In this document: positions 1 through 17,100 of the stretch, in pieces | How positions within the stretch are numbered: position 1 is the stretch's first letter | Layout of the letters: each line of letters starts with the position of its first letter | DNA from: Candidatus Nomurabacteria bacterium RIFCSPHIGHO2_12_FULL_37_29 | GTDB taxonomy: Bacteria > Patescibacteriota > Minisyncoccia > Phycocordibacterales > UBA9973 | Direction of reading: 5' to 3' | Length of the DNA: 64,000 nt | Assembly (NCBI GenBank): GCA_001785675.1 | Contig: MFUJ01000016.1 | Coordinates: forward strand, 149-64,148 | Notes under the pieces: model-generated | Told to the model about the DNA's origin: nothing | The model's input: the letters and a program-made list of their open reading frames with translations, nothing else | Databases searched by the model: none | Translations under genes and position numbers: made by a program

Positions 1-1665
1 ACAACAGCAACATTAAATGGCGACATAACAGCCACAGGTGGCGCCAATGCAACGGCTCGTGGATTCGAATATGGTACAACTATTTCCTATGGAACAAGTA
101 CCACGAGTAGTGGAAGCTATGGTATAGCTTCTTTCAGCGACAATATAACTTCACTTACCTGCGCCACGACATACCATTTTCGTTCCTATGCCACGAACTC
201 TGCCGGCACAGGATCAGGAGCTGATGCAACTTTCACAACCACAAGTTGTCCTTCCTCTGGCGGTGGCGGAGGCGGAAATAGCGGGCTTGGGGGAGGCGGT
301 GGTGGAGGAACGATAATTGTAAATGCACCAACAGTAGTGGAGATCATAGAAAATCCAATTGATTTTATCGATAATCAAATTATTACTCCAATTTTTACCA
401 CTATTGATAAAATAATTCCCTCATTTTTAAAACCTAAACCCGTTCCAGTAAAGCCTATTGTTCCAGTTGAAGAATTAGTGACAGAAAAGGTCCCGTTAGC
501 TTTGGGGGGTATATGGCAACTTTATCTTTTGCCTCAAAAAGCAGAATTTGTTTTAGCCCCTTTACCAAAAGCGATTAATGATCTGGCTCAAAAGTTCCCG
601 ACATTGGAACAAACTTTTAACGAAGTAGGTATTAGTAAAATTACCGATATTACAAAACTTAATAATATTAAATTAAACCTCCCTGGATTAACGGAAAGAG
701 TAGGTTTGTCGACTCTCAATATTAAACCCAGCATATTTTCTCTACCAGAGGGTATTCCGATCGGCAATCTATCACTAGCAACTAAAAAACAAATACCCGC
801 GGAAATTATCTTTGTTAAAACTGGCGCTGAATTGATTGATTTTAATCCTACTTTGTCTGTTTCTGATAAAGGCGAACCAGAGCAAAAAATCAACACAATC
901 TCTGGCAAACTTTTACAGTTAGCTGTAAAACCCGATAAACCAGTAGAGAGCGTGAAGGGCTATGTAGTCTTTAAATCAAGGGCAATCCGTTCAACTTCTT
1001 TAGAAATTCCGTCTGATTCTTTATTAGCATCAGCTATTTTTGCCACTCCAGTTTTTGCTCAAATAGAGGAGAAACCTGTTAGAGTTGAAGAAAAACTGGT
1101 TTTGCTCGAATTTTTATACACCGATATTGATGGTGATGGAATTTATACGGCTGAAATAAAGGCGCCTTTGGTTGAAGGTGAATATGAAATTATTACGGTA
1201 CTAGACTTTATCGATCCAGACTTGGGTAACAAACAAATTCGTTTGACTACCGTTGTTGACCCAGAGGGGTATGTTTATTCCACTTTGCCGGCAGGCAAAT
1301 TAAGAATCGCCGGAGCCGTTGTTTCTATTTATTGGTTAAACCCTGGAACCAAGAAATATGAAATATGGTCAGCCAAGGAATACCAGCAGGAAAATCCGCA
1401 AGTTACTGACGATACAGGCAAGTATTCTTTTTTAGTGCCCCCCGGCACATATTATTTAAGAATTGAACATCCTAATTATCCTGCTTATCAATCTGAAACT
1501 TTTGTGGTCAAAGAAGGCAGCGGAGTTCACATGAATATTGAGCTTAAAACTAAATACTGGTGGCTTCAGATTTTTGACTGGAAAACCACTTTATTAGTTC
1601 TAGTTATAATTTTATTGCTTTATAACTTTTATCGTGATAAAATGAGAGAGAGTTTAATGAAATAA
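1..1665 (+). CDS. 5'-truncated cell-surface protein with fibronectin-III-like repeat, Gly-rich linker, carboxypeptidase-regulatory-like beta-sandwich and C-terminal TM anchor
   Basis: Frame 1 is open from base 1. It encodes ...ARGFEYGTTISYGTS...TCATTYHFRSYATNSAG (fn3-like repeat common in CPR surface proteins), a GGGGGGNSGLGGGGGGG run, and KYSFLVPPGTYYLRIEHPNYPAYQSETFVV (CarbopepD_reg-like). A hydrophobic tail LLVLVIILLLY precedes the stop at 1663-1665. Confidence 0.55.
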   Translation, partial: TTATLNGDITATGGANATARGFEYGTTISYGTSTTSSGSYGIASFSDNITSLTCATTYHFRSYATNSAGTGSGADATFTTTSCPSSGGGGGGNSGLGGGGGGGTIIVNAPTVVEIIENPIDFIDNQIITPIFTTIDKIIPSFLKPKPVPVKPIVPVEELVTEKVPLALGGIWQLYLLPQKAEFVLAPLPKAINDLAQKFPTLEQTFNEVGISKITDITKLNNIKLNLPGLTERVGLSTLNIKPSIFSLPEGIPIGNLSLATKKQIPAEIIFVKTGAELIDFNPTLSVSDKGEPEQKINTISGKLLQLAVKPDKPVESVKGYVVFKSRAIRSTSLEIPSDSLLASAIFATPVFAQIEEKPVRVEEKLVLLEFLYTDIDGDGIYTAEIKAPLVEGEYEIITVLDFIDPDLGNKQIRLTTVVDPEGYVYSTLPAGKLRIAGAVVSIYWLNPGTKKYEIWSAKEYQQENPQVTDDTGKYSFLVPPGTYYLRIEHPNYPAYQSETFVVKEGSGVHMNIELKTKYWWLQIFDWKTTLLVLVIILLLYNFYRDKMRESLMK

Positions 1666-1672
1666 AGAATAT

Positions 1673-2035
1673 ATGAAAAACCCAAATAGAATTTTAATTC
1701 TCATTTTAGTTCTGCTTCTCGGTAATGTTTTTTTAGGCGTCAAATATTTTTCTGTTGCAAAAGAGCTTCGTCAGACCAAAACTCTTTCGGAAGCCCAAAA
1801 GGTCAATAATAAGGTTTTAGAATTTTCCAAGCTTTTTATTGAAAAAGTACTAAAAACCAAGACTGAAATTGATTTTGAAATGAGATTAAAACTTGAAAAC
1901 GCAGTTAGAGACTTAGGAGATAATGAAATTTTGGCTCAATGGTCCCAATTTATTGAAAGCACAACGGAAGCCAACGCGCAAGAAGAGGTTAAAAATTTAC
2001 TGGAATTATTAATAAACAAAATTAGGGTAAAATAA
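1673..2035 (+). CDS. hypothetical small membrane-anchored protein
   Basis: 120-aa ORF with an N-terminal hydrophobic helix (ILILILVLLLGNVFLGV). No recognisable domain. Confidence 0.35.
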   Translation: MKNPNRILILILVLLLGNVFLGVKYFSVAKELRQTKTLSEAQKVNNKVLEFSKLFIEKVLKTKTEIDFEMRLKLENAVRDLGDNEILAQWSQFIESTTEANAQEEVKNLLELLINKIRVK

Positions 2036-2180
2036 ATTTTGTTTCCATTGCATAGTACTTGTTTTTATGTCATTAAAGATCGGCATGGTGTGAGCGCTAC
2101 CCAACATCTCAACAATAATATAGCTATAAAGCAGGTACCATTTGAGTTTACGATAAACCTTCCACCGTCACTTAAAATTT

Positions 2181-2609
2181 TTGGTAATAAATAAAATATT
2201 AATTATGCAAATTTCTATTTTTGAAGAGGTGAAGCAGTTGAATTTTCCTTTTGGTAGTTATGCTGTCGTTGGTGGTGGTGTTATGGAAGCACACGGAATT
2301 CGCAATCATGGAGATGTTGATATTATTGTGACACGTGAATTTTTTGAAAAGTTAAAGAACCATGGTTGGGAATTAGTACATGGTAAAAATAATGTAATCA
2401 AAAAAGGGAATTATGAAATTGATGTGGATTTTAAATATGGAGACTATCAGCCTGACCATGAAGGATTAATAAGAGATGCAGAGATCATTAAGGGGGTGCC
2501 ATTTATGCGACTTGAGGAGCTTATTAAGTTTAAGAAAGCGCTTGGTAGGGATAAGGATAAAAAAGATATTGCGCTGGTGAAAAGATATTTGATAAAACAA
2601 AAAATTTAG
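2181..2609 (+). CDS. putative nucleotidyltransferase-fold protein
   Basis: GSYAVVGGGVMEAHGIRNHGDVDIIV resembles the Pol-beta-like NTase G[SG]...D.D motif. The start may instead be the ATG at 2205. Confidence 0.4.
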   Translation: MVINKILIMQISIFEEVKQLNFPFGSYAVVGGGVMEAHGIRNHGDVDIIVTREFFEKLKNHGWELVHGKNNVIKKGNYEIDVDFKYGDYQPDHEGLIRDAEIIKGVPFMRLEELIKFKKALGRDKDKKDIALVKRYLIKQKI

Positions 2610-2616
2610 ACTAATA

Positions 2617-3234
2617 TTGTTAATTATGGATACAGGGAAATTACTTTTAACATCAACAGGTCTATCTTCTGAAAATATCGCAAAAAGATTTCAGAGTTTT
2701 TTTGCTGATTCTGGAAGTCAGGCTGTTGCAATAATTACTACTGCTGCGGAGGGTAAGGAGCAAAATAAATATTCCCAATTAGCTAAAAAGCAGTTCAAGA
2801 AAATGGGATTTACTAAGATCGATTTTGTTGATCTCGAGACAGAGCCAACTATAGATTTTTCTTCGTATAGAGTAATTTATGTGTGTGGTGGAAACACATT
2901 TAAACTTCTAAAATTTGCACGAAAGGCAAATTTCCAGTCTTCGGTTAATAATCTCATAAAACGTAATGGTGTATATGTTGGTGTTAGTGCTGGAAGTATT
3001 ATTGTCAGTCCGTCTATTAATATTGCAAATGAGGTTGAGCCTGACTCAAATGATATTGGCTTAGAAGATCTTACTGGTTTTAATATCACTAATCTTATTA
3101 TTCTCCCACATTATTCTCCAGAAGTTGAGGAAGAAACAAAAGCTTTTGAGACAAAATATGGAGTTACTGTAGAACGTTTGAACAACTATCAGGCTGTCCT
3201 TATAGAAAACGGAGAAAAAACTATTATTGAATAA
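2617..3234 (+). CDS. peptidase S51 (dipeptidase E-like) / class I glutamine amidotransferase-like protein
   Basis: YVCGGNTFKLLKF and GVSAGSII motifs typical of the PepE/cyanophycinase family. Confidence 0.6.
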   Translation: MLIMDTGKLLLTSTGLSSENIAKRFQSFFADSGSQAVAIITTAAEGKEQNKYSQLAKKQFKKMGFTKIDFVDLETEPTIDFSSYRVIYVCGGNTFKLLKFARKANFQSSVNNLIKRNGVYVGVSAGSIIVSPSINIANEVEPDSNDIGLEDLTGFNITNLIILPHYSPEVEEETKAFETKYGVTVERLNNYQAVLIENGEKTIIE

Positions 3235-3237
3235 AAA

Positions 3238-3263
3238 TGGGGGCACACTTGCGTATGCCCCCA
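3238..3263. terminator. bidirectional hairpin terminator at the left border of the high-GC island
   Basis: Perfect 8-bp stem tgggggca/tgccccca with a 10-nt loop, lying between the convergent stops at 3234 (+) and 3266 (-). Confidence 0.5.
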
Positions 3264-3265
3264 TG

Positions 3266-4021
3266 TCAGATCAACCTCTTAATTTTACTCATCACATCCT
3301 TCACCCTTTTCCTCCTTGAGAGTTCTAGGGCAAGTTCATAGATGAGTAGGTCCGAAGACCTAAGGAGCCTTGCTTGCTGTTCAAGCGATCGGAATCCACG
3401 GAAGTATCTTCGACTATGCGCGAACGCAAGTCGAACCATCGAGGCCATGATATCCGAGAGGCATAATTCTCGCTCGAGAGTTGCATTTTCATGCAATTTC
3501 TCAAGCGTTGAGAGTTTCTGCCTGATCTCGTCAGCACACAGCTCAACGATAGATTTCGAGAGCGAGGCGGGGTAGGGAACAAGCAGCTCCCTAAGTCGGA
3601 CACTGATATCCGTAACATCATACAGAGTCTCGGCAGTTGCCAAGTCTCCGCACAACGCTTCTGGCAACCAGTATCCGGTAGCCCAGGGGCGGTGTTGACA
3701 GCCCAGATTCCTGCCCTCAATCCACTCCTCGACCTGCCTAACGAGCAAGGCTGAATCGCAAACTGCGACACCTCCAGAGCCCATCGGCAGATCAAAGCGA
3801 ACACTGTCATCGCACACAAAGAAGTTTCCGGTTGGCCACCGATTCTCTAGCAAAGCTTTGATGGTGTTGGAATATCTTTCAATACTCCCGTCATCACAGC
3901 CTGCCAAAAGGTCGATTTTGCCTTTTGCCGAATTCCTCTTCAGTCCAACATGTAGTAGCACTTTCATGCCATACAATTCACGCAAAACGTGAGACAGATC
4001 GGAGGCTAAGCTATTTTTCAT
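3266..4021 (-). CDS. hypothetical protein, possibly nucleotidyltransferase-like; last gene of the high-GC operon
   Basis: 251-aa ORF with high GC. Its start overlaps the stop of the upstream gene by 4 nt (4018-4021). No firm domain; KGKIDLLAGCDDGS and the helical C-terminus are only weakly NTase-like. Confidence 0.45.
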   Translation of the reverse strand: MKNSLASDLSHVLRELYGMKVLLHVGLKRNSAKGKIDLLAGCDDGSIERYSNTIKALLENRWPTGNFFVCDDSVRFDLPMGSGGVAVCDSALLVRQVEEWIEGRNLGCQHRPWATGYWLPEALCGDLATAETLYDVTDISVRLRELLVPYPASLSKSIVELCADEIRQKLSTLEKLHENATLERELCLSDIMASMVRLAFAHSRRYFRGFRSLEQQARLLRSSDLLIYELALELSRRKRVKDVMSKIKRLI

Positions 4022-5136
4022 AGTGCCTCCTTGTTCCGTTTCGACTCCTCAAGCTCGATAAGAGCCTTCGGAAATCCGAATGTGGACGTTAGATACTCGA
4101 TGTCTGATCCGGTCAGAGGGCCATTACTGCGAGAGGTAAGTTTTGTATATTCCTTCCTCCCACGCTCAAGCCCCTTCTCGAATTTTGACACCTCCTCGGC
4201 AAACACAGTCTGCACCGCATCAGCCGAGGCCCATTGATTTCCTGATATCACGACAAACTCATCAAATGAGATGGATGTCTGTCGGCAGAGGATGAAAGCC
4301 TCTCGGATGAGTTTCCGAAGGACATAATCCGCCGCTTTGTTTCCAGGCCGAAGCCCTTCCGATACCAGGAGTACCGCCGCTTTGCCGAGATCGGCGAGGC
4401 GACACATGATGGCTTGATCCTTTACTTCGGATTGTTCCGTGATGGATTCGATCACGCCTTTCCAGCTCGAGTTTTCGTAATCGCTGCCACAGCATTCGAC
4501 TGCTGTGACGATACGATCAATGCTCGCTCCCGAATCGGCGGCAATCTTCTCCAGGGGAGATTCGAAAAGCGTTTCGCCCAGAAACTCGGTAAAGACCAAG
4601 TTCCAGAGCTCGATCGACTTATCCGTGTCTGGATTTCTCCAGACGATCTCCGTGCGAATACCGCATCGATTCTGGGTCGGAGTAAAGGTGACGTTCTTGT
4701 CATTGCTGACAGTCCTGACACCCAACCTTTCCCATATTTTCTGCGATGTTGCATCTTGTGGATGCACTGTTGCCGACAGCGTGGCAGGGCTGATCCCTGC
4801 ACACACTGTCAGATAATGCCAAGCACTCTCGATCATTACATCCTTCACCTCTTGCTCCTTGCCCTCGTAGAGGGAAAAGTGGCCGAGCATGTCGAATGCA
4901 AGATGGTGCCTTCCCGACAAACCGATCTTCTCCCATCTATCTGTCCGCAAGCATGTCTGAACCGAAACGACACGGGTCTTCTCAGGGATTACTCCATGAG
5001 AGATCGCGTTCTCGAAAACGACACCGCCAGAGATGTTGAACAGGAGCTTAGGGTTTGCGCTTACGATTGGAACGCTGTCTTGCCACTGGAAACCGAAGGT
5101 CCCGAAGTGGCGTCTGATTTCATCATACGTCTTCAT
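4018..5136 (-). CDS. divergent alanyl-tRNA synthetase catalytic-domain homolog (mini-AlaRS-like, 372 aa)
   Basis: Class II AlaRS motifs are present: NPKLLFNISGGVVF, RHHLAFDMLGHFSLY, ELWNLVFTEF, ADSGASIDR and YVLRKLIREA. Motif 3 (GPCGPC) is degenerate (NRCGIRTE). The start is set at the ATG 5136-5134, which forms an ATGA overlap with the radical SAM stop. The longer ORF call to 5430 overlaps the upstream gene by 300 nt. Confidence 0.65.
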   Translation of the reverse strand: MKTYDEIRRHFGTFGFQWQDSVPIVSANPKLLFNISGGVVFENAISHGVIPEKTRVVSVQTCLRTDRWEKIGLSGRHHLAFDMLGHFSLYEGKEQEVKDVMIESAWHYLTVCAGISPATLSATVHPQDATSQKIWERLGVRTVSNDKNVTFTPTQNRCGIRTEIVWRNPDTDKSIELWNLVFTEFLGETLFESPLEKIAADSGASIDRIVTAVECCGSDYENSSWKGVIESITEQSEVKDQAIMCRLADLGKAAVLLVSEGLRPGNKAADYVLRKLIREAFILCRQTSISFDEFVVISGNQWASADAVQTVFAEEVSKFEKGLERGRKEYTKLTSRSNGPLTGSDIEYLTSTFGFPKALIELEESKRNKEAL

Positions 5137-6356
5137 GGAGAACCTCCCATTGCCAGATGTTTGAATACAGTCTGCCTGACTGCGTAGGTGAACTTGCTCA
5201 TCTCGGGATGAGTAACAAGTCCGTGGTTGATATCCCAACTCACTACGTGAGCCGGAATCCCGAGGCTGTCCAAGATACCCTGTGCTCGCTCCGCCGTCAT
5301 ATTGTAGGCTGAGCCTTGAGCGCAGATTCTCCGTTGGGCCAGAGGGCAGCGAGATGCCTCGCATTCTGACCGCGCGAAAATCTGTACCGAAGTGATGCTC
5401 GGAATCTTGAGCATCCGAGTAAGGGCGCACGACGACTTGAGATAGACGGGGATACCGGGAAAGTGTTCGGCGCTCAGTGAGAAGATGGAATCCACCAACT
5501 CCTGCGGCAACAACTTCACATTGTCATCCCGAGGGATGTTCGGCATGGGGAGCTTATGAATCTCCACCAGTCCGTTCTCGATACCTTCCGTCCAGCGCAG
5601 ACCGCCCGGAACGATCATGTCGATGACTTCGCCGTAGTGTTTTTTCACCCACAGCATCATCATCTCGATTCTGTCCCGATTACCGCTCCACTCAGGAACG
5701 ATCGGTCGCATGTACCACGCAATGGTGGCTCCTGCTTCCTTGGCTTCCTCAGAATTGAGAAAGCGGTTGTTATGCGCTGGCTCAATCGTGTCTGGATTGT
5801 CTGCCCAGCACAGCGACAGCATCAAGCCGCGCGTTGCATTCGAGATGCGGGCGAAGTCAAGCTTCCTCCCTTTAGGAACGCCACCTTTGGTAACGATCCA
5901 GAAGGGATTCCGTAGACCGCGCCGGACGAATCCGTCCATGATCTCGAATGTACTGTCTACGACAGCAGGAGCGAACGGCTCCGTGCTTGCTGTCCCGATG
6001 CTGATGATTGTCTCATCAGCAATGAAGAACGGATGCTTGACCAGTTCATCGAGGATTTGATCCACGCTAAACTGATTGCGCCGTTTCGGTTTTCTCGGCA
6101 TGGTGCCTCGCTCGTCGAGATCTTGGTAGGTCCCTTGAACGTGGCAGTACCGGCATTGCCAGGCGCAACCGATCCAGAGATCGATGCTCAGCGAGCTGTT
6201 GGACACACTGACTGATGAAAGGGGATGATTACTATCTGGCACGAGAGCTCCATACGTGTATTCACGCAAGGAAAACTCCTGTCCCGTAGTCGTGCCCCTG
6301 ATTTGGACGAGCGGCTCAGAATTAATGGCCGCGAAGTATTCCATCTTGGAATTCAT
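5133..6356 (-). CDS. radical SAM protein (SPL/DNA-photolyase-like family)
   Basis: CAWQCRYC is a CxxxCxxC cluster in the GC..C.YC context seen in spore-photoproduct-lyase-like radical SAM enzymes. 4-nt overlaps on both sides. Confidence 0.6.
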   Translation of the reverse strand: MNSKMEYFAAINSEPLVQIRGTTTGQEFSLREYTYGALVPDSNHPLSSVSVSNSSLSIDLWIGCAWQCRYCHVQGTYQDLDERGTMPRKPKRRNQFSVDQILDELVKHPFFIADETIISIGTASTEPFAPAVVDSTFEIMDGFVRRGLRNPFWIVTKGGVPKGRKLDFARISNATRGLMLSLCWADNPDTIEPAHNNRFLNSEEAKEAGATIAWYMRPIVPEWSGNRDRIEMMMLWVKKHYGEVIDMIVPGGLRWTEGIENGLVEIHKLPMPNIPRDDNVKLLPQELVDSIFSLSAEHFPGIPVYLKSSCALTRMLKIPSITSVQIFARSECEASRCPLAQRRICAQGSAYNMTAERAQGILDSLGIPAHVVSWDINHGLVTHPEMSKFTYAVRQTVFKHLAMGGSP

Positions 6357-7093
6357 GTGACTTCTCCTTTCAGGTAGTTGATGTTTCGTGTGACTTGTTC
6401 TTCCGTTGTCATACCAATGACAACGGAAGTGCCGAGGGTGAGTGCATTTCGTGCAACCATCTCGGCCGAGTGCGGGTCAGTGAGCAACTTCCCCTGTTTG
6501 AACAGACTTCTCAAGAGAACCTCCTTTTTAAGATCAAGCAGATATGGGAGCTGTTGAAGCGCCCAAGTCTGCTCAGTGTTGAAAGGAGCTTCAATCACGT
6601 CGATGTGCGGCAAAACCGCTTCAGCGACAGGATATGAGAAATTGTCGGGTAGGGAAATTCCTACACGCTTGACGATGCCTTCATCCTTAAGCCCCTTAAG
6701 GCACTCAAGGATTACTACTGCTTCTGACGACCACGTGGGCAACCAGTTGTGCAGAAGTACCGTGTCGATGGAAGATCGCCGTAGCCTTTCCAATGATCCG
6801 TACACACTTCGATGTATGCCATCTCGTGAGTAAAATCTTTGGATCGGTTCAGGTGCTTCCAGATTCGGTTTTGATGCTGCCGGAATTTTGGTCACAATGA
6901 CCGCATCTTCCGGTAGGCATGCGCCAAGCATCTCCTCGACCTTGCCTCCACCATAGACGGCCGCCGTATCAAAACGACGGATACCGGAGCTGATGGCGAA
7001 AAGCAGAAGCGATTCAATATAGGCAGGGGACAGGTTTTTGAACTGTCCTCCAAGTTGCCACGTACCGAAGTAGAGGCGATCAAACCAGTCCAT
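6353..7093 (-). CDS. aldo/keto reductase family oxidoreductase
   Basis: GTWQLGG...GIRRFDTAAVYGGGKVEEMLG is the aldo/keto reductase N-terminal signature. 246 aa; first gene of the minus-strand operon. Confidence 0.7.
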   Translation of the reverse strand: MDWFDRLYFGTWQLGGQFKNLSPAYIESLLLFAISSGIRRFDTAAVYGGGKVEEMLGACLPEDAVIVTKIPAASKPNLEAPEPIQRFYSRDGIHRSVYGSLERLRRSSIDTVLLHNWLPTWSSEAVVILECLKGLKDEGIVKRVGISLPDNFSYPVAEAVLPHIDVIEAPFNTEQTWALQQLPYLLDLKKEVLLRSLFKQGKLLTDPHSAEMVARNALTLGTSVVIGMTTEEQVTRNINYLKGEVT

Positions 7094-7275
7094 GTTTTCT
7101 CCTTAATTTTTAGGTTGTAAAAGAGCGTGGAATTGCGATAAGTTCTAGCACAAAACTACAATATATTCTCTAAAATGTCAATGGGTATCCCAAAAGGCGT
7201 ATCCTTGCCGTAATTATAATTGTGTGTTAATGTAATGCCGGAACGAAAACCCTAAACCACAGAAAGGACCTTGTA

Positions 7276-8568
7276 ATGAAACTGCTATATAAGACGACCG
7301 AGGAAGTGCGCCAGACCTTTCTGAGCCACTTTCTCAAGCATGATCACCAGCTCATCGATCCATCGGGGATCATTCCCAAGAACGATTCGACTCTCATGTT
7401 CATCAACTCGGGTATGGCCCCGCTCAAGCCATATTTCACGGGCCAAGCGAAACCGCCGTATCCGCGCCTGACGAACGTGCAGGACTGCATCAGGTTTGTG
7501 GACGTTGAAAGCGTCGGCGATTCCTATCACGGAACGAACTTCCGCATGATGGGTTCCTGGTCCTTCGGAGACTACTTCAAAGAACGGGCCATCGAGCTTG
7601 CCTTTGAACTCATCACCGAGGGATTCGGTATTCCTGCTGAACGTCTCTCCGCCACGGTATTCCTGGCAGACGAAAGTCTGCCAGGCGTACCGAGCGACGA
7701 AGAATCGGCTCGCATCTGGGAGAAATTCTTACCGCGAGATCGAATCATCGGACGGCCACCAGTAGACAACTTCTGGGGTCCAGCGGGAACCAGTGGTCCA
7801 TGTGGCCCTTGCACGGAAGTCTTCTTTGATCGAGGCGAGGAATTCGCCGAGAAAGAAACGGACGACGTGCTGGTTCCTGGGCGACACATCGAGATCTGGA
7901 ATGCCGGAGTGTTCATGCAATACTTCAAAGACGAGCAAGGGAATTTCTCTCCGCTCCCTATGAAGTGCGTGGATACGGGAGCGGGCCTTGAGCGCTTCGC
8001 CATGATCCTACAGGGCCGTGCCTCGATCCACGAGATCGATCAGTACGGCTCGTCCTACCAACTCATCAATCAGAGAATTGGTGACACGGCATGGACGAGG
8101 GTCATTCTCGACCACATCAAGACCTCGATTCTGATGATTCGTGAGGGTATCATTCCGAGCAACACTCGGGAGGGTTACCTTCTCCGTCGTGCGCTTCGGC
8201 GTGCGATGATCGGCATCTTCCTGCGAGGGATCAATCTGACCATTCTTCAGGAGTGGGCAGACTCTCTCAGCGAAGTGATCGATAACAAGGACCTGACCAT
8301 GCGTCAGAAATCTGTTATTGCACACTGGCTCAGCGAGGAGCGTGATAGCTTCGAAAAGCTGATGCATCGCAGCAGAAAGTATCTCGATAAGATCGTCATG
8401 GCTAAGGAGTTGGATGCGCAACATGCATTCACTTTGAAAACCGGCGTGGGTATTCCCGAAGATCTTCTGGAGGAATTCTGTTCTCGTCACGGCATTCCAT
8501 TTCCGAAGATTGAGTTCCTCCGACTTATTGAGGGGCATAAGGATGTCTCGCGTCGGCCGAAGAAGTAG
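7276..8568 (+). CDS. truncated alanyl-tRNA synthetase catalytic core (430 aa, no editing or C-Ala domains)
   Basis: Near-canonical AlaRS motifs: NSGMAPLKPYF, FRMMGSWSFGDYFK, GPCGPCTEVFFDRG, IEIWNAGVFMQYF, VDTGAGLERFAMIL and GYLLRRALRRA. The ORF ends in RRPKK* immediately before a terminator. High GC. Confidence 0.7.
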   Translation: MKLLYKTTEEVRQTFLSHFLKHDHQLIDPSGIIPKNDSTLMFINSGMAPLKPYFTGQAKPPYPRLTNVQDCIRFVDVESVGDSYHGTNFRMMGSWSFGDYFKERAIELAFELITEGFGIPAERLSATVFLADESLPGVPSDEESARIWEKFLPRDRIIGRPPVDNFWGPAGTSGPCGPCTEVFFDRGEEFAEKETDDVLVPGRHIEIWNAGVFMQYFKDEQGNFSPLPMKCVDTGAGLERFAMILQGRASIHEIDQYGSSYQLINQRIGDTAWTRVILDHIKTSILMIREGIIPSNTREGYLLRRALRRAMIGIFLRGINLTILQEWADSLSEVIDNKDLTMRQKSVIAHWLSEERDSFEKLMHRSRKYLDKIVMAKELDAQHAFTLKTGVGIPEDLLEEFCSRHGIPFPKIEFLRLIEGHKDVSRRPKK

Positions 8569-8590
8569 TTCTTTTTGTCTGCACTATGTG

Positions 8591-8630
8591 GAGCCCACCC
8601 GTTAACAAGACGGGCGGGCTCTTTTTTGTT
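8591..8630 (+). terminator. rho-independent terminator at the right border of the high-GC island
   Basis: gagcccacccg-ttaacaa-gacgggcgggctc forms a 12-13-bp stem and is followed by a TTTTTTGTTTTT run. Confidence 0.6.
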
Positions 8631-8696: not shown

Positions 8697-9548
8697 ATGT
8701 TAAAGATCGGGATTGTTGGTCTGCCAAATGTGGGGAAGTCCACGCTTTTTAATGCGTTGACGAAAAAGAGTGTACCAGCAGAAAATTATCCCTTTTGTAC
8801 TATTGATCCATCGGTAGGTATTGTTCCTGTGCCAGATGAAAGATTAGATAAACTATCAGCCATGTCTAAGTCCAAGAAAAAGATTCCTGCAGTGGTAGAA
8901 TTTGTAGATATTGCGGGATTGGTGAAGGGGGCAAGCGAGGGCGCAGGACTCGGTAATAAATTCCTTTCCCATATTAGAGAAGTGGATGCAATCATTGAAG
9001 TGGTGCGAATTTTTGAAGATAAAGATATGATTCATGTTCACGATAATATTGACCCGCTTTTTGATATTGAAGTTATAAATTTTGAACTTGAACAAGCTGG
9101 AATTACAAAACCGACTTTGTATGTGCTTAACACATCAGAAGCGGCAGAGAGTGTGAAAAAAGATTTTATATCAAAACTTCCAGGCCCACATATTGAAATT
9201 GATCCTATTTTTGGAACTGGTTTGGATAATCTAGTACAAGCAAGCTACGATCTTTTAAATTTAATTACTTTTTTCACTACCGGCGAAGATGAATCGAGGG
9301 CTTGGACTACGTTTCGTGGAGCGACCGCGCCTTTTGCTGGTCGCGCTATCCATAATGATTTTAAAGAAAAATTTATCCGCGCAGAAGTAATTAACTGGAA
9401 AGATTTATTAGACTGTGGCCGTTCAGGCTCTGAAGAGCCCTCAGGCTCGATGAGCTCTTATGTTGTCGCTCGCTCCAAAGGACTAGTGCGAACTGAAGGT
9501 AAAGAGTATATTGTGCAAGATGGAGATGTGATTGAATTTTTAATATGA
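8697..9548 (+). CDS. ychF: ribosome-binding ATPase YchF (Obg-like ATPase), short form
   Basis: IGIVGLPNVGKSTLFNALT...NYPFCTIDP...VEFVDIAGLVKGAS at the N-terminus and a C-terminal TGS-like YIVQDGDVIEF. 283 aa, versus about 363 aa typically. Confidence 0.75.
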   Translation: MLKIGIVGLPNVGKSTLFNALTKKSVPAENYPFCTIDPSVGIVPVPDERLDKLSAMSKSKKKIPAVVEFVDIAGLVKGASEGAGLGNKFLSHIREVDAIIEVVRIFEDKDMIHVHDNIDPLFDIEVINFELEQAGITKPTLYVLNTSEAAESVKKDFISKLPGPHIEIDPIFGTGLDNLVQASYDLLNLITFFTTGEDESRAWTTFRGATAPFAGRAIHNDFKEKFIRAEVINWKDLLDCGRSGSEEPSGSMSSYVVARSKGLVRTEGKEYIVQDGDVIEFLI

Positions 9549-14131: not shown

Positions 14132-17100
14132 TTGTATAATATGTATGTTTCCGCAAATATAAAAAATATGTTCCCCAAACTTAACGAAAAGTATCTATTA
14201 CTATTGCGGTCCCTCTTTGGTTCCATTATTCTGTTTTTAGTCGTTTTTATTTTTCCCTCAAGCACTAGGGCTTTTGATTTTTCGACTGAATTAAATAATG
14301 TAAATAATTCTCTTCAAAATGTCTATAATAAATATATTTTATCACCCATAGGCAAAGGGTTGTTAGAAACGTCCTCTATTTCTAAAGAATATATTATCCA
14401 GTCGGTAAATAATATTACCAGTGAAATTGGAAAGGCTCCCAGGAAGATAGTTTCCAAAATTTCTAATGCTGAACTTTATTCTTCTATTTCTTTGGTTGCT
14501 AACCCCTTAACAGAATTAAGCGAATCCCTCTTTAATACTTATTACAATTACGTTATCAATCCACTAGGCGATGGGATTTCTGAAATCTTTTTTCTTTTTG
14601 AAAACCAAAATTCTGAACCATCAATTTCATCAAAAACTACTCCAACTTCTCCCAATACAATAGTTTCCTCTTCGCCCACCCCAAGCACTTCAAACACATC
14701 GGGCATTTCAGACCCTTCAAGTATTCCGCAATTTCCTGCTTCTCCCCACCCAAACACCATAGGTGAGCAGGTCTTGTCAGGAGTTAGTGTTTCTGCCAAA
14801 ACCCCTACCGCTAAAACAATTTACACCCAAGGCCTTCCAGGACCACAAGGCTTACAGGGTCCAGCAGGTCCAGCAGGTCCAGCAGGTCCTGCAGGAACAT
14901 CAGGCGGTTTTGCTCCACTCTCTCCTCCCTCCTTTGCTCCACCAAGCTATAATAATAATCAAATCATAGGTAACAGTGGTGGCTTTGCTTCGCTTGGAGT
15001 TCAAGATCTAATTGCGACTACATTAAATATTACCGGGGTCTCTACGCTTGCCAGCCTCGCTATTACTGGTGGTTCTACATTGACTGGCAATCTAACCGTT
15101 TCTGGTACAATTAACGGGACTTCTCTACCAACCTCCGGAACACTTTATGGCACAGCAACTGATTCAATCACATCTCTTCAGTTATTGACTTCGGTTTCCA
15201 ATGAAACAGGCACAGGTGCCTTAGTATTTGGAACTTCTCCGACTTTTACTACAAACATTACAACTCCTCTTATTGTCGGTGGCACAGCTGTTGGTTCAGG
15301 TGTCACTTATAAATCTACCACAGGCATAGGAACAGTAACAGGTATCGCTCATCAATTTGTCGGTGGAACTGACGGAGCAACTGTTGCAATGACCGTTTTG
15401 AATAATGGTTTCGTCGGCATTGGGACAAGTACACCAAATTTTGGTTTGGAAGTAACAACTTCAAAAGGCAATACGACGGCCAAATTAGGAGCTAGTGACG
15501 CGCTTTATACCATTTATAGTAATCCCGCACTTGGCTTTAACGCTTATTATGACAGCGGATGGAAATATGGTAACGCATCCCCGGCAAACTACGCTGCTTT
15601 AATTAGCCGTTCCAATACAGGTGATCTTTCTTTTTCGGTCGCTGGTACCGGCACTGCTGACTCGGCTATTACCTGGGCTAGTCCGCTGGTTATTTTAAAT
15701 TCTGGCAATATCGGTATCGGGACGACGGTGCCATTAGACCCATTAGAGGTAGTGGGTGTGAGTGGCGCATATAATGGAAATGGAAATGAAAGCATCTTTC
15801 AAATCACAACAGGGACGGGACTAATTACAGACGACAAACTTCAATTTGGAATTGTTGATGGGAGTTATTCGTGGTTACAGGCACTTGACCCGATGAACGA
15901 ATACAGAAATCTTGCCCTTCAACCAGGCGGGGGTAACATCGGTATCGGGACGACGGGACCGGGAGTTAAATTAGAAATTGAACATGCACAAGCGAGTGAA
16001 GCTGGTTTTGGTACTCCAGCAGTTTTGGTTGATGTTAGTAATAATTTTGGTAATAAAGTTATTGATTTAATAAGATTAGACCGTACAGTTTCTGGAGATG
16101 TAGGATCAGCTGGGGTAGGTGCTGGAATTTTGTTTAGGACAGAAGATTCTGCTGGAAATTTAGATGAAGTTGCAAGAATTACTGCTTTGCATTCAACCGT
16201 AACAAGCGGAAGCGAAGTTGGCGATATTAGATTTCAAACAAGGAGTAACGGAAGTGCGATTGCTGATGTTGTGACCATACAAGGCAGCAAGGTCGGTATC
16301 GGGACAACGGCGCCTTCAACATTACTTCATGTTGGTCTAGCAGGAACGACACTGGGAACTATTGGTGTAGCGGGGAATACCTCCGGACTGGTTACCATTC
16401 AACCAGCAGCTGCAGCAGGAACTTGGACTCTCACTTTACCCACCGCGGTGGGCGCCGCAGGTCAGCAACTGACTGATGCGGCAGGAAATGGTATAACTTC
16501 CTGGACGGCAGCAGGTTCAAAGAGAGAGTACAAAAACATACTTGGGACAGTTGAACCAGAAGAAGCTTTGTCGACGATTCTTGACACTCCCGTGTATAGG
16601 TTCAAATACAAAGCAGGATTTGGTACTGGAGACTATAGTACCGAGTACGTAGGGGTAATGGCAGATGAAGCTCCTTGGGCAGTACACTTTAACGGGACAA
16701 TTATAAATCCTGTTAATACGCTCGGATATGCCGTGCTTGGCATTCAGGCATTGGATGAAAAAGTGAATTTGCTGGATTTTAAAATAAAAGACTTACAGAT
16801 AAATGCTCTTGGTGTAAACACTCCTTTGATAAGCAGAGGGCAAGCAGGAAGTCTAACCGACACCCTAGGCGCTTATGCCAGTGCATTTTTTAGTGATGTA
16901 TTGCAAAAAGTTGAAAATGGTGTGGCGCAGGTGAAAGATTTGGTTGCAGAGACATTAAAAGTCGGTAGTTCCGAAAAACGTACTGGCATAACTTTGTATG
17001 ATGAAGTTACTGGAGACCCATATTGTCTCTCAATTACAAATGGGACAACAAAAACTGCTCCGGGCGAATGCGTTACCATAGAACCTCCAGCACCAATACT

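Follow-up and report, generated by a model that had tools for sequence, protein, structure and literature searches.

Composition of the island and integrity of the assembly

Why does a stretch of about 5.4 kb with high GC content interrupt the low-GC genome of a Candidatus Nomurabacteria bacterium, and what do its genes do? In the window, the 64-kb stretch of DNA analysed here, GC content was 0.517 at positions 3238 to 8630 vs 0.368 in the remainder, and the profile rose from 0.33 to 0.36 up to 0.50 to 0.56 between approximately 3250 and 8600 and then dropped back, confirming the rise and fall between two hairpins described in the original prediction. The codon usage of the island was also unlike that of host genes, as had been proposed: GC at third codon positions (GC3) was 0.52 to 0.64 in the five island genes vs 0.22 to 0.35 in eight flanking genes, so that the GC excess lies at synonymous sites. 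The GC3 z-scores of the island genes ranged from 3.3 to 5.0 with respect to 48 other open reading frames (ORFs) of the window. Tetranucleotide usage likewise marked the segment as an outlier, with an L1 distance of 0.564 from the rest vs 0.142 ± 0.020 (maximum, 0.193) for other 5.4-kb windows. The segment is not an rRNA operon.

Horizontal acquisition or a chimeric join had been proposed as the origin of such a segment. An assembly or binning chimera, in which a higher-GC contig was joined into a Nomurabacteria scaffold, would be in agreement with the sharpness of the GC steps and their location at hairpins. In addition, contig L014 departs from the window sequence at 7124, and in L009, which comes from that sample too, the aldo-keto reductase (AKR) region is only 85.6% identical over 6362-7411. 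Thus, assemblies do fork within the island, and these forks are better explained as strain-level island variants. Against a chimera, NCBI (2 MAGs), ENA (megahit and the original Rifle scaffolds) and JGI (several samples) all provide long contigs that contain both junctions, and the linkage of the low-GC S51 peptidase gene to the high-GC core recurs in many unrelated genomes. Altogether, at least 22 independent contigs of Ca. Nomurabacteria (NCBI, ENA, JGI and Logan) encoded identical proteins and reproduced both junctions, and all the long ones showed the same flanks; an identical AlaRS1 was common to four Nomurabacteria MAG accessions. Given the agreement among these four sources, with different assemblers and samples, the chimeric part of the proposal was rejected, with next to no probability left to it.

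Extent and organization of the mobile unit

The core consists of five genes in two divergent units, four on the minus strand (nucleotidyltransferase, AlaRS2, radical-SAM enzyme and AKR) and one on the plus strand (AlaRS1). The 182-bp intergenic region between both units (7094-7275), with a GC content of only 0.36, presumably holds the promoters of both, and it contains one sigma-70-like match (7133-7162). A search of this region against Rfam gave no match at an E value of ≤1, and no unusual structure was found in it (z, +0.65).

Both of the hairpin terminators that had been placed at the island edges exist. The left one (3237-3264; 12-bp stem with seven G-C pairs) lies between the convergent S51 and nucleotidyltransferase genes, has its T-run on the minus strand and is a bidirectional intrinsic terminator. 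Its position is kept in eight other islands, with compensatory stem changes. The right hairpin (approximately 8591-8622; terminator 8591-8630, plus strand) is formed by GAGCCCACCCGT/ACGGGCGGGCTC, followed by T6GT5, and has a predicted fold of -24.6 kcal/mol. A hairpin plus T-run is also present 3' of AlaRS1 in L022, L030, L033, L034, L035 and L046, and the right hairpin is the intrinsic terminator of AlaRS1 and the right end of the mobile unit. Both structures are conserved together with the island and terminate its own two transcription units, which read outward.

For its part, the gene to the left of the first hairpin (2617..3234, plus strand) encodes an S51 peptidase (PepE/cyanophycinase-type serine peptidase; Pfam PF03575, 3e-28), for which gene callers place the start at 2626 (202 aa). 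Its GC content (0.335) and GC3 (0.22) are low and host-like, and it had been taken for an ordinary flanking host gene, a view that does not hold, since S51 moves together with the island. In most CPR versions, as well as in those of Bacillota, it adjoins the core. Its homology with other islands starts at approximately 2623-2725, and its GC content stays at 0.36 to 0.41 in all close islands, including that of a 0.61-GC host. Since the mobile unit includes the low-GC S51 gene (and sometimes a 142-aa ORF upstream), the left hairpin lies inside this unit rather than at its edge. The mobile unit comprises approximately 6 kb (approximately 2617-8630), with the S51 peptidase plus the five higher-GC genes. 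The 142-aa ORF (2181..2609, plus strand), which matched no family in a Pfam search, may be an optional accessory. Its membership is uncertain: nucleotide homology to L033 begins at 2208, within this ORF, and its homologues adjoin S51 only in L033 (68% amino acid identity) and L043 (43%).

Distribution and horizontal transfer

Patterns derived from the radical-SAM enzyme matched only 37 of 185,579 species representatives, spanning Saccharibacteria, Uhrbacteria, Zambryskiibacteria, Yonathbacteria, Buchananbacteria, Dojkabacteria, Paceibacterota, Thermoactinomyces and gut Bacillota MAGs; for many MAGs, the taxonomic label was given by submitters and may be wrong. Genomes that bear the labels of different CPR lineages share the gene set, with 79 to 92% identity of the radical-SAM protein. 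The flanks of the CPR islands are unrelated to each other, with GC contents of 0.36 to 0.61, and nucleotide homology between the window and other islands is limited to approximately 2620-8575. In addition, 20 CPR contigs that are syntenic with the host for ychF-(MTase)-DUF5671-leuS contained no island gene. With respect to L030, synonymous divergence of the core genes was low (dS of only 0.17 to 0.42). The gene set shared across lineages, the unrelated flanks, the low core dS and the 20 syntenic relatives without the island make its horizontal acquisition, the other half of the earlier proposal, a solid conclusion from these comparisons.

A simple transfer from a higher-GC donor, as originally envisaged, does not account for the data. 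In the close clade, the core has a GC content of 0.49 to 0.54 and S51 one of 0.36 to 0.41, whatever the GC content of the flanks. While the core is close to that of L030, S51 is saturated (pS, 0.75), and identity to L030/L031 jumps from 64-70% to approximately 90% at the left hairpin, with the step at approximately 3100-3300. With respect to L033, dS was approximately 0.9 to 1.4 for all genes. The left hairpin thus coincides with both the GC step and a recombination breakpoint, and the unit is a mosaic in composition and through recombination: S51 is most similar to one lineage, and the core to a different one. The island is a member of a modular cluster family that moves and recombines among CPR/Patescibacteria and is also present in some Bacillota. 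L047, a distant island version, also adjoins ychF, so that an older resident island, overwritten later, is conceivable.

The foreign composition, patchy distribution, differing flanks and absence from syntenic relatives are shared with classical genomic islands and integrative elements. Unlike these, the CPR island has no integrase, transposase, tRNA target or direct repeats: neither the first two nor att repeats or a tRNA gene were found at its borders, and a search for relatives on phages, plasmids and viral contigs found none. Recombination appears to be the route by which the island moves and is overwritten.

Encoded enzymes

The original prediction was silent on the functions encoded by the island. 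The nucleotidyltransferase (3266..4021, minus strand; 251 aa) is a two-domain protein that resembles kanamycin ANT(4') and lincosamide LinB; some of its homologues match DUF4037. The AKR (6353..7093, minus strand; PF00248, 5e-29), encoded by the first gene of the minus-strand operon, is short (246 aa), and its D/Y/K/H tetrad is visible in the motifs FDTAAVYG, VTKIP and LLHNW. Its gene adjoins that of the radical-SAM enzyme in 35 of the 37 genome loci, and in gut Bacilli the AKR is fused to a nucleotidyltransferase-like domain. The radical-SAM enzyme (5133..6356, minus strand; 407 aa) is spore photoproduct lyase (SPL)-like, of the COG1533 type. It is only 14% identical to SPL, and a sequence search gave no match among PDB chains. 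Moreover, it differs from SPL and the COG1533 "DNA repair photolyase" enzymes in an additional Cys-rich C-terminal domain and in a neighbourhood that is biosynthetic, not DNA-repair related. Values of dN/dS of 0.05 to 0.27 across all genes indicate that the mobile unit is under purifying selection.

AlaRS1 (7276..8568, plus strand; 430 aa) is a truncated alanyl-tRNA synthetase (AlaRS) that matches PF01411 (1e-99) over profile positions 1-429 of 552 and can be aligned with 1riq, an A. aeolicus AlaRS fragment, over residues 5-415 of the latter. It retains only the catalytic and tRNA-recognition domains, with every AlaRS catalytic motif intact and a dN/dS of 0.05 to 0.08; the editing and C-Ala domains are missing. 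AlaRS2 (4018..5136, minus strand; 372 aa, on which gene callers agree) is a divergent truncated paralogue (PF01411, 1e-41), 25% identical to AlaRS1, which also contains only the aminoacylation and tRNA-recognition domains and aligns to the AlaRS catalytic fragments 9jc7 and 1riq. It keeps the motif-2 Arg, ELWNLVF and ADSGAS; W170 and the GPCGPC loop are gone. Its dN/dS was 0.10 to 0.13.

AlaRS1-family proteins are labelled "alanine--tRNA ligase" in UniRef and JGI, an N-terminal AlaRS fragment of this size can aminoacylate, and no AlaRS-like ORF besides the island pair was found in the 64-kb window. These points would suit a native housekeeping role, with AlaRS1 (together with AlaRS2) as the sole, split or truncated AlaRS of the cell and the GC gap due to gene-specific constraints. 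Such a role is very improbable in view of the third-position GC excess, the 20 syntenic relatives devoid of these genes, the linked radical-SAM enzyme in a mere 37 species representatives, the near-identical copies in hosts with flank GC contents of 0.36 to 0.61, and AlaRS1 itself, which lacks two domains and scored 344 bits, under the alaS equivalog cutoff of 457.

Cluster variants and proposed function

Bacillota versions of the core were found in Thermoactinomyces DSM 45892, Priestia megaterium and a Lachnospiraceae MAG. Their additional genes encode an 82-aa carrier protein, a class-II aminoacyl-tRNA synthetase (aaRS)-like enzyme of the amino acid:carrier protein (aa:CP) ligase type, an ATP-grasp enzyme, an S51 peptidase, an MFS exporter and a condensation-like protein (NHMLSDG motif; PF00668 at 4e-4), in a layout that is classic for biosynthetic clusters. 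The AlaRS slot is occupied by a class-II Asp/Lys/Asn-type aaRS in L032 and by a class-I LysRS in L040; both are full length and have no AlaRS2-like partner. In gut Bacilli, an S66/MccF-type peptidase replaces S51. The slot for amino acid addition and that for the peptidase would each accept different enzymes in different cluster variants.

The carrier protein, aa:CP ligase-like, ATP-grasp, condensation-like and exporter genes of Bacillota point to a biosynthetic-type module, and the island probably makes or handles an amino-acid-tagged small molecule. From gene content and by analogy, we infer a horizontally spreading module that aminoacylates a small molecule through tRNA. The ANT-fold nucleotidyltransferase, the AKR and the SPL-like radical-SAM enzyme would build or modify the scaffold, and AlaRS1 would charge tRNA-Ala to supply a dedicated Ala-tRNA pool. 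AlaRS2, with its remodelled amino acid/ATP pocket, could move the alanyl group onto the scaffold, as AcmF does in ascamycin biosynthesis, or else activate and attach a related amino acid. Like AcmE or MccF, the S51 peptidase may strip the aminoacyl group, which would serve self-protection or activation, and the product would be an aminoacylated ("Trojan-horse"-type) antimetabolite. The combination of a horizontally acquired island and this tRNA-dependent biosynthesis is the best joint explanation, and we hold it with somewhat better than even confidence. The CPR island contains no exporter, a point against biosynthesis.

Alternatively, AlaRS1 (or the Asp/Lys aaRS elsewhere) could be an inhibitor-insensitive spare copy of a target, in an island that spreads by protecting its carrier. 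The antibiotic, a mimic of an aminoacyl-adenylate produced by neighbouring cells or by the bacterium that hosts the CPR cell, would be inactivated by the ANT-fold nucleotidyltransferase and the S51/S66 peptidases. The full-length aaRS of L032 and L040 fits a resistant target copy as well as a biosynthetic role. However, the most constant members, the radical-SAM enzyme and the AKR (35 of 37 loci), are untypical of resistance genes, AlaRS2 has no obvious part in this scheme, and the Bacillota versions are laid out biosynthetically. A purely protective island is thus unlikely, though worth keeping in mind; since producers normally carry resistance genes, its resistance-like features fit the biosynthetic explanation too.

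The pocket of AlaRS2 raises another alternative, in which the radical-SAM enzyme, the AKR and the nucleotidyltransferase make an alanine-like nonproteinogenic amino acid and AlaRS2, as its synthetase, loads it onto tRNA for translation or for cell wall or lipid aminoacylation. This would follow a logic like that of pyrrolysine, whose pathway includes the radical-SAM enzyme PylB. In AlaRS2, which is under strong purifying selection (dN/dS, approximately 0.1), the tRNA-recognition domain is kept together with the motif-2 Arg and the Asn/Val and Asp/Gly pocket residues, and loss of W170 and GPCGPC, which line the amino acid site, would be expected to change specificity rather than abolish activation. 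On the other hand, the island neither contains nor adjoins a tRNA gene, no Fem- or MprF-type aminoacyl-transferase is linked, the Bacillota versions rely on a carrier protein instead of tRNA, and one special amino acid ill suits the variation of the aaRS slot (Ala, class-II Asp/Lys, class-I Lys). We regard this possibility as rather improbable.

Comparison with known systems

Amino acid:[carrier protein] ligases, reportedly described by Mocibob et al. in PNAS in 2010, are said to be truncated SerRS-like class-II enzymes that load carrier proteins. Similarly, in the Bacillota versions the 82-aa carrier protein gene lies directly 5' of that for a 331- to 335-aa class-II aaRS-core protein, in accordance with amino acid activation and hand-over by a carrier-protein route. 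The CPR island differs in having no carrier protein and in using AlaRS paralogues; as these keep the tRNA-recognition domain, the carrier is presumably tRNA.

Self-immunity systems provide a second likeness. MccF, an S66 peptidase, confers self-immunity to microcin C, and extra copies of IleRS, ThrRS, SerRS, LeuRS and TrpRS accompany the mupirocin, borrelidin, albomycin, agrocin 84 and indolmycin clusters, respectively. A peptidase (S51, or S66 in the variants of gut Bacilli and Moranbacteria) and an additional aaRS constantly accompany the present cluster as well, with the difference that the aaRS type varies among its variants. We know of no S51 peptidase described in a self-immunity role.

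The third system is ascamycin, whose cluster in Streptomyces sp. 80H647 is considered here as far as it is described in PMC12945691 (and in Zheng et al., ACS Catal 2024, cited therein). There, the AlaRS AcmD produces Ala-tRNA, the AlaRS-like aminoacyl transferase AcmF is truncated and lacks most ATP/Ala-activation residues (N219Q and D232E), and AcmE is a hydrolase (PMC12945691). The hosts differ (CPR bacteria vs actinomycetes), AlaRS1 is itself truncated at 430 aa, the island hydrolase is an S51 peptidase whereas AcmE is an alpha/beta-hydrolase, and the radical-SAM enzyme, AKR and ANT-fold nucleotidyltransferase are unrelated to the ascamycin nucleoside-sulfamate genes. Sulfamate/nucleoside genes of the ascamycin type are absent from the island, which speaks against the analogy. 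AlaRS2 keeps the aligned Asn and Asp that are lost in AcmF, and loses W170 and GPCGPC instead; it could thus have remained an adenylating synthetase instead of becoming a transferase. Distant relatives of AlaRS1 (40 to 42% identical) likewise have an AlaRS2-like gene as partner, in clusters of other composition (S66 peptidase, methyltransferases and carbamoyltransferase). The AlaRS2 of these clusters carries a D-to-E change at the residue that aligns with D235 of AlaRS, the substitution also seen in AcmF (D232E). Both systems have two AlaRS-family genes per cluster, one catalytically canonical and one cut down to the aminoacylation and tRNA-recognition domains, plus an alanyl-removing hydrolase, and AlaRS1, AlaRS2 and S51 fit the three-part logic of AcmD, AcmF and AcmE, AcmD and AcmF being compared by their published description.

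Composition and limits of the island

A marked step in GC content was observed between approximately positions 3250 and 8600, with values of 0.47 to 0.56 inside the interval and 0.30 to 0.40 on both sides (0.517 for the interval versus 0.368 for the remainder of the window). The five genes of this high-GC core (3238-8630) showed GC3 values of 0.52 to 0.64, compared to 0.22 to 0.35 in eight neighbours including leuS, thus placing the compositional shift at synonymous sites; their GC3 z-scores ranged from 3.3 to 5.0 with 48 other ORFs of the window as the reference. Tetranucleotide usage in the interval differed from that of the rest by a distance of 0.564, whereas other windows of the same size yielded 0.142±0.020, with a maximum of 0.193. 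The GC rise, the deviant codon usage, and the two terminator hairpins of the original prediction (3237-3264 and approximately 8591-8630) were all recovered.

Its left limit was not. The original prediction had placed the edge of the island at the left hairpin and had taken the S51 peptidase ('PepE-like') gene beside it (2617 to 3234, plus strand) for an ordinary host gene. Nucleotide homology between the window and the islands of 12 other genomes extended from approximately 2620-2725 to approximately 8575, never reaching the flanks, which sets the left limit upstream of the S51 gene. This gene adjoins the core in the Bacillota versions and in the majority of those from CPR, and its GC content is 0.36 to 0.41 in every close island, including one in a host of 0.61 GC, so that its low GC content in the window merely happens to resemble that of the host. 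The boundaries of the unit were revised to approximately 2617-8630, the left one possibly lying at 2181. Thus, a low-GC gene beside a high-GC block may still belong to a mobile element.

The two hairpins belong to the island and are conserved with it. In all eight of the other islands compared, the left hairpin is kept between the convergent S51 and nucleotidyltransferase (NTase) genes, with compensatory changes in the stem, and a GC-rich hairpin followed by a T run lies after the AlaRS1 gene in six other islands.

A sliding identity profile revealed a switch at approximately 3100-3300, where the left hairpin lies, and a second drop near 6100. Compared with two close CPR islands, L030 and L031, the core was approximately 92% identical and the S51 gene 64 to 70%, whereas with a third one, L033, the values were approximately 80% and 80 to 94%, respectively. 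In agreement with this, dS against L030 was 0.17 to 0.42 for the five core genes while S51 was saturated (pS, 0.75; pN, 0.18), and against L033 both parts diverged in step (dS, approximately 0.9 to 1.4). The island is thus a recombinant mosaic, and the GC step coincides with the junction of two modules of different histories.

An rRNA operon, the usual cause of an approximately 5-kb high-GC block in a low-GC genome, was discarded, since an Rfam scan of the window at gathering thresholds yielded only eight tRNAs and one LOOT RNA. The latter (RF03000; 45745-45863, plus strand) was a full-length match of 80.7 bits, for a gathering score of 46.4. Composition deviated strongly in only one other ORF of the window, of 276 aa, located at 53589-54416 (minus strand; GC3, 0.57; window mean, 0.31; standard deviation, 0.065) with a weak, subthreshold Pfam match to SAM_HAT_N (SAM hydroxide adenosyltransferase/DUF62; E value, 8.8e-5), which may be a second foreign gene. 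GC content was also mildly raised at 15000-17000 (0.44 to 0.45 versus 0.34 to 0.38 around it). For its part, the host YchF encoded next to the island (8697-9548, plus strand) is short, at 283 aa. In many related CPR contigs (L093-L130) the tblastn match to it splits in two, with 80 to 140 extra codons in between, and YchF of the window lineage thus appears to lack an internal insertion or domain.

Assembly support and strain variants

The second explanation offered in the original prediction, a chimeric assembly join, was refuted. Identical AlaRS1 and rSAM (radical SAM) proteins were encoded on at least 22 contigs, obtained from two NCBI MAGs, the original Rifle scaffolds, ENA megahit assemblies, several JGI samples, and Logan assemblies, and all the long ones carried the same flanks; the recurrence of identical proteins and flanks in independent contigs excludes a misjoin. 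The identical AlaRS1 was common to four "Candidatus Nomurabacteria" accessions.

Two window-like contigs from one sample departed from this pattern. The first (L014; ERZ27254846 k141_2538826) was 99.8% identical to positions 1-7124 of the window and then continued into unrelated DNA encoding Cob_adeno_trans, two SET-domain proteins, a hydrolase, and GH130. The second (L009) showed only 85.6% identity over 6362-7411, a stretch spanning the gene of the 243-aa aldo-keto reductase (AKR), and nonetheless encoded the identical AlaRS1 and the ychF flank. These forks point to strain-level variants of the island, arisen by rearrangement or recombination inside it.

Distribution and horizontal transfer

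The gene set recurs as a conserved module in which gene order is shuffled and neighbours differ. It was present in a complete 943-kb CPR genome (L021; CP064996.1; AlaRS1 identity, 88%), in a Patescibacteria contig from Hainich groundwater (75%), and in Saccharibacteria (49%). In the pattern scan of 185,579 species representatives, one genome per species, the rSAM was found in only 37, mainly of CPR lineages, plus Thermoactinomyces and gut MAGs labelled Bacillota or Bacteroidota. According to the genome labels, it is 82 to 92% identical across Nomura-, Uhr-, Zambryskii-, Yonath-, and Buchananbacteria and Saccharibacteria. Within the closest clade (rSAM identity, ≥79%) the GC content of the core was always 0.49 to 0.54, with flanks of 0.36 to 0.61; the island of an Uhrbacteria MAG lay 10 points below its host. 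In the Hainich contig, with a host of approximately 0.52, the GC content of the module matches that of the host.

The island genes were absent upstream of ychF-(MTase)-DUF5671-leuS in all 20 syntenic CPR contigs, which are distant relatives (YchF identity, approximately 54 to 83%). A YchF-anchored metagenome scan yielded no exact preinsertion junction, the closest relatives being 73 to 78% identical and lying on contigs of 2 to 3 kb. Foreign composition, unrelated flanks elsewhere, a similarity of island genes far above that predicted by the divergence of their hosts, and absence from syntenic contigs uphold the first explanation of the original prediction, and the island was very probably acquired horizontally. 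No integrase or transposase was found among its neighbours, no meaningful flanking or att repeats and no tRNA insertion site were found at its borders (the nearest tRNA lies at 25.5 kb), and phages, plasmids, and viral contigs yielded no relatives, the plasmid matches being generic rSAM proteins with 25 to 29% identity. As a phenomenon, the island is unexceptional: horizontally acquired DNA in which no mobility genes are recognised.

Two other loci deserve mention. A distant version in a Paceibacterota contig (L047:4907-11951; JBAYUP010000018.1) likewise lies immediately upstream of ychF, with a 49% identical rSAM, six genes all on one strand, and a core GC content of 0.41 versus 0.38 in the flanks; this placement could be due to a site preference or to an old resident island overwritten later. 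In the complete genome L021, the AKR, S51, AlaRS2, and rSAM genes are each split, whereas they are intact in an Illumina-based contig with an identical AlaRS1 (L022), and frameshift errors in the complete assembly, not pseudogenization, probably account for the splits.

Gene content of the island

The five core genes form two divergent transcription units with a common 182-bp intergenic region of 0.36 GC. A search of this region for a riboswitch or T-box gave no Rfam match at an E value of ≤1 and no excess of structure. The minus-strand operon, running from 7093 to 3266 with gene overlaps of 4 nt, encodes a short AKR (6353-7093; PF00248, 5e-29), a 407-aa radical-SAM enzyme (5133-6356), a divergent AlaRS paralogue of 372 aa, AlaRS2 (4018-5136; PF01411, 1e-41), and a 251-aa NTase-fold protein (3266-4021) without a family match in profile searches. 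The plus-strand unit (7276-8568) encodes AlaRS1, of 430 aa (PF01411, 1e-99, profile positions 1 to 429 of 552). The encoded proteins are presently annotated as 'hypothetical', 'DNA repair photolyase', 'alanyl-tRNA synthetase', or 'alanine--tRNA ligase-related protein'. None of the five proteins matched the defence models of PADLOC-DB at an E value of ≤0.01. With S51 included, dN/dS ranged from 0.05 to 0.27, indicating purifying selection on all six genes and hence a functional cargo.

Two weakly annotated proteins of the island were resolved by structure prediction. The rSAM shows the CxxxCxxC cluster motif and the partial TIM-barrel fold of the Radical-SAM superfamily; its sequence gave no match in the PDB at an E value of ≤1. 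Its assignment as a spore photoproduct lyase (SPL) was rejected, given a structural identity of 14%, the lack of a PDB sequence match, and its neighbours (AKR, NTase, and aaRS paralogues). The NTase has the two-domain fold (NTase plus helical domain) of ANT(4')/Lnu-type nucleotidyltransferases. The catalytic signature G-S...D-x-D reads GS-x9-DYD in the Bacillota homologue and VGL-x9-(K/R/H/N)(I/V)D in the CPR proteins, which keep only the second Asp and an invariant DD at positions 71 and 72.

Two truncated AlaRS paralogues

AlaRS1 and AlaRS2 are only 25% identical to each other, and no other AlaRS-like ORF was found within the 64-kb window. Neither has the editing and C-Ala domains of a canonical AlaS, and neither scores above the equivalog cutoff; in TIGR00344 (cutoff, 457 bits) they reached 344 and 151 bits, respectively. 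Residues were compared by means of motif blocks and HMMER alignments to PDB chains. AlaRS1, which ends after the tRNA-recognition domain, aligned with residues 5 to 415 of the Aquifex aeolicus catalytic fragment 1riq and keeps all the catalytic motifs (motif-2 Arg, FW..GPCGPCTE, EIWN, and VDTGAGLER). AlaRS2 is likewise truncated to the aminoacylation and tRNA-recognition domains, matching PF01411 over profile positions 10 to 403 and aligning with AlaRS fragments to approximately residue 397. It retains the motif-2 Arg, ELWNLVF (aligned Asn), and ADSGAS (aligned Asp), and lacks W170 and the GPCGPC loop, both beside the amino-acid site. Proteins of the approximately 430-aa AlaRS1 type should not be scored as housekeeping alaS in completeness or metabolism surveys of CPR.

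Relatives of AlaRS1 with 40 to 42% identity again have an AlaRS2-like partner, in different cluster contexts that include an S66 peptidase, methyltransferases, a carbamoyltransferase, and a truncated class-II aaRS. In one such sister cassette, carried by Moranbacteria and by another CPR contig (L147:2422-11902 and L148:2379-13133), an AlaRS2-like gene (393 to 397 aa) overlaps an AlaRS1-like gene (431 to 436 aa), next to an S66/MccF-type peptidase, SAM methyltransferases, a carbamoyltransferase, two dCTP-deaminase-like genes, an Orn/DAP decarboxylase, and a truncated class-II tRNA-synt_2 protein. In the AlaRS2 of this cassette, Glu takes the place of the catalytic Asp in the alignment.

Variants of the cluster

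The constant core comprises rSAM and AKR, found in 35 of the 37 loci, usually together with the NTase-fold protein; in gut Bacilli an NTase-like domain is fused to the AKR, and an S66/MccF-type peptidase replaces S51. A larger cluster surrounds this core in Thermoactinomyces sp. DSM 45892, Priestia megaterium, and a Lachnospiraceae MAG, adding an 82-aa carrier protein, a 331- to 335-aa class-II aaRS-core protein of the amino acid:carrier protein (aa:CP) ligase type, an ATP-grasp ligase, a condensation-like protein (NHMLSDG motif; PF00668 at 4e-4), an S51 peptidase, and an MFS exporter. This layout is unmistakably biosynthetic. The Thermoactinomyces locus occupies approximately 40.9-51.6 kb of FNPL01000003.1, and the P. 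megaterium genome is GCA_035726625.1. In the CPR, the 'amino-acid-adding' slot of the Bacillota set is taken by the AlaRS1-AlaRS2 pair, by a class-II Asp/Lys/Asn-type aaRS in L032, and by a class-I LysRS in L040.

The Bacillota sister cluster has a low GC content, 0.33 versus 0.41 in the flanks in Thermoactinomyces (L027/L045), where a prophage lysis module borders it on one side and a type I restriction-modification system on the other, and 0.26 versus 0.45 in the Lachnospiraceae MAG (L057). It looks horizontally acquired too.

Proposed function and comparison with ascamycin biosynthesis

CPR/Patescibacteria are usually considered to have almost no secondary metabolism. The cargo of the island, and not the GC step, is the point of interest: a conserved cassette under purifying selection, with two truncated AlaRS paralogues, shared at up to approximately 90% identity among very different CPR lineages. 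Neither this gene combination nor paired truncated AlaRS genes in CPR were found described in the searchable literature, where a review dealing with AcmF was the sole relevant item.

The sole characterised precedent for such an AlaRS pair is AcmD/AcmF of ascamycin biosynthesis. AcmD is an AlaRS making Ala-tRNA, AcmF, which is reduced to its aminoacylation and tRNA-recognition domains and carries N219Q and D232E, transfers the alanyl group to an amine of the drug, and AcmE hydrolyses it off again (PMC12945691). By analogy, AlaRS1 would supply Ala-tRNA, and rSAM, AKR, and NTase would make a scaffold onto which AlaRS2 would load the amino acid; S51 would take the amino acid off again, for immunity or activation. 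We consider the chances of this mechanism to be evenly balanced; against it stand the conservation in AlaRS2 of the Asn and Asp lost in AcmF and the lack of an exporter in the CPR island. A pure resistance role, with a resistant aaRS copy, an antibiotic-type NTase, and a peptidase, fits several of the parts equally well.

If the scaffold-aminoacylation mechanism is followed further, CPR may, as a tentative and rather doubtful proposal, exchange undescribed modular clusters for aminoacylated 'Trojan-horse' aaRS-type antimetabolites. The scaffold would be made by the SPL-like radical-SAM enzyme, the short AKR, and the ANT-fold nucleotidyltransferase, and the two truncated AlaRS paralogues, as a dedicated pair, would make tRNA the carrier of the aminoacyl group. 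Both the amino-acid module and the immunity peptidase would be exchangeable, the former between the AlaRS pair, an Asp/Lys-type aaRS, a class-I LysRS, and the set of carrier protein, aa:CP ligase, and ATP-grasp enzyme, the latter between S51 and S66. Experimental access to the product would be possible, since the cultured Bacillota Thermoactinomyces sp. DSM 45892 and P. megaterium have the sister cluster.

Should the AcmD/AcmF analogy be true, the aminoacylation of small molecules by way of tRNA would no longer be confined to one Streptomyces pathway but would also operate in a mobile system widespread among ultrasmall episymbiotic bacteria, which would point to chemical warfare or defence in their host-dependent lifestyle. 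Nature would then also offer, for a single scaffold, several 'amino-acid-adding' modules that can replace one another. Like AcmD, AlaRS1 has intact AlaRS catalytic residues, and like AcmF, AlaRS2 is cut to the aminoacylation and tRNA-recognition domains. Unlike AcmF, the AlaRS2 of the window keeps the residues aligned to N219 and D232, only W170 and the GPCGPC loop being gone, whereas the Glu of the L147/L148 AlaRS2 is as in AcmF. As to its cargo, the island represents a novel variation on biosynthesis that depends on aaRS paralogues.
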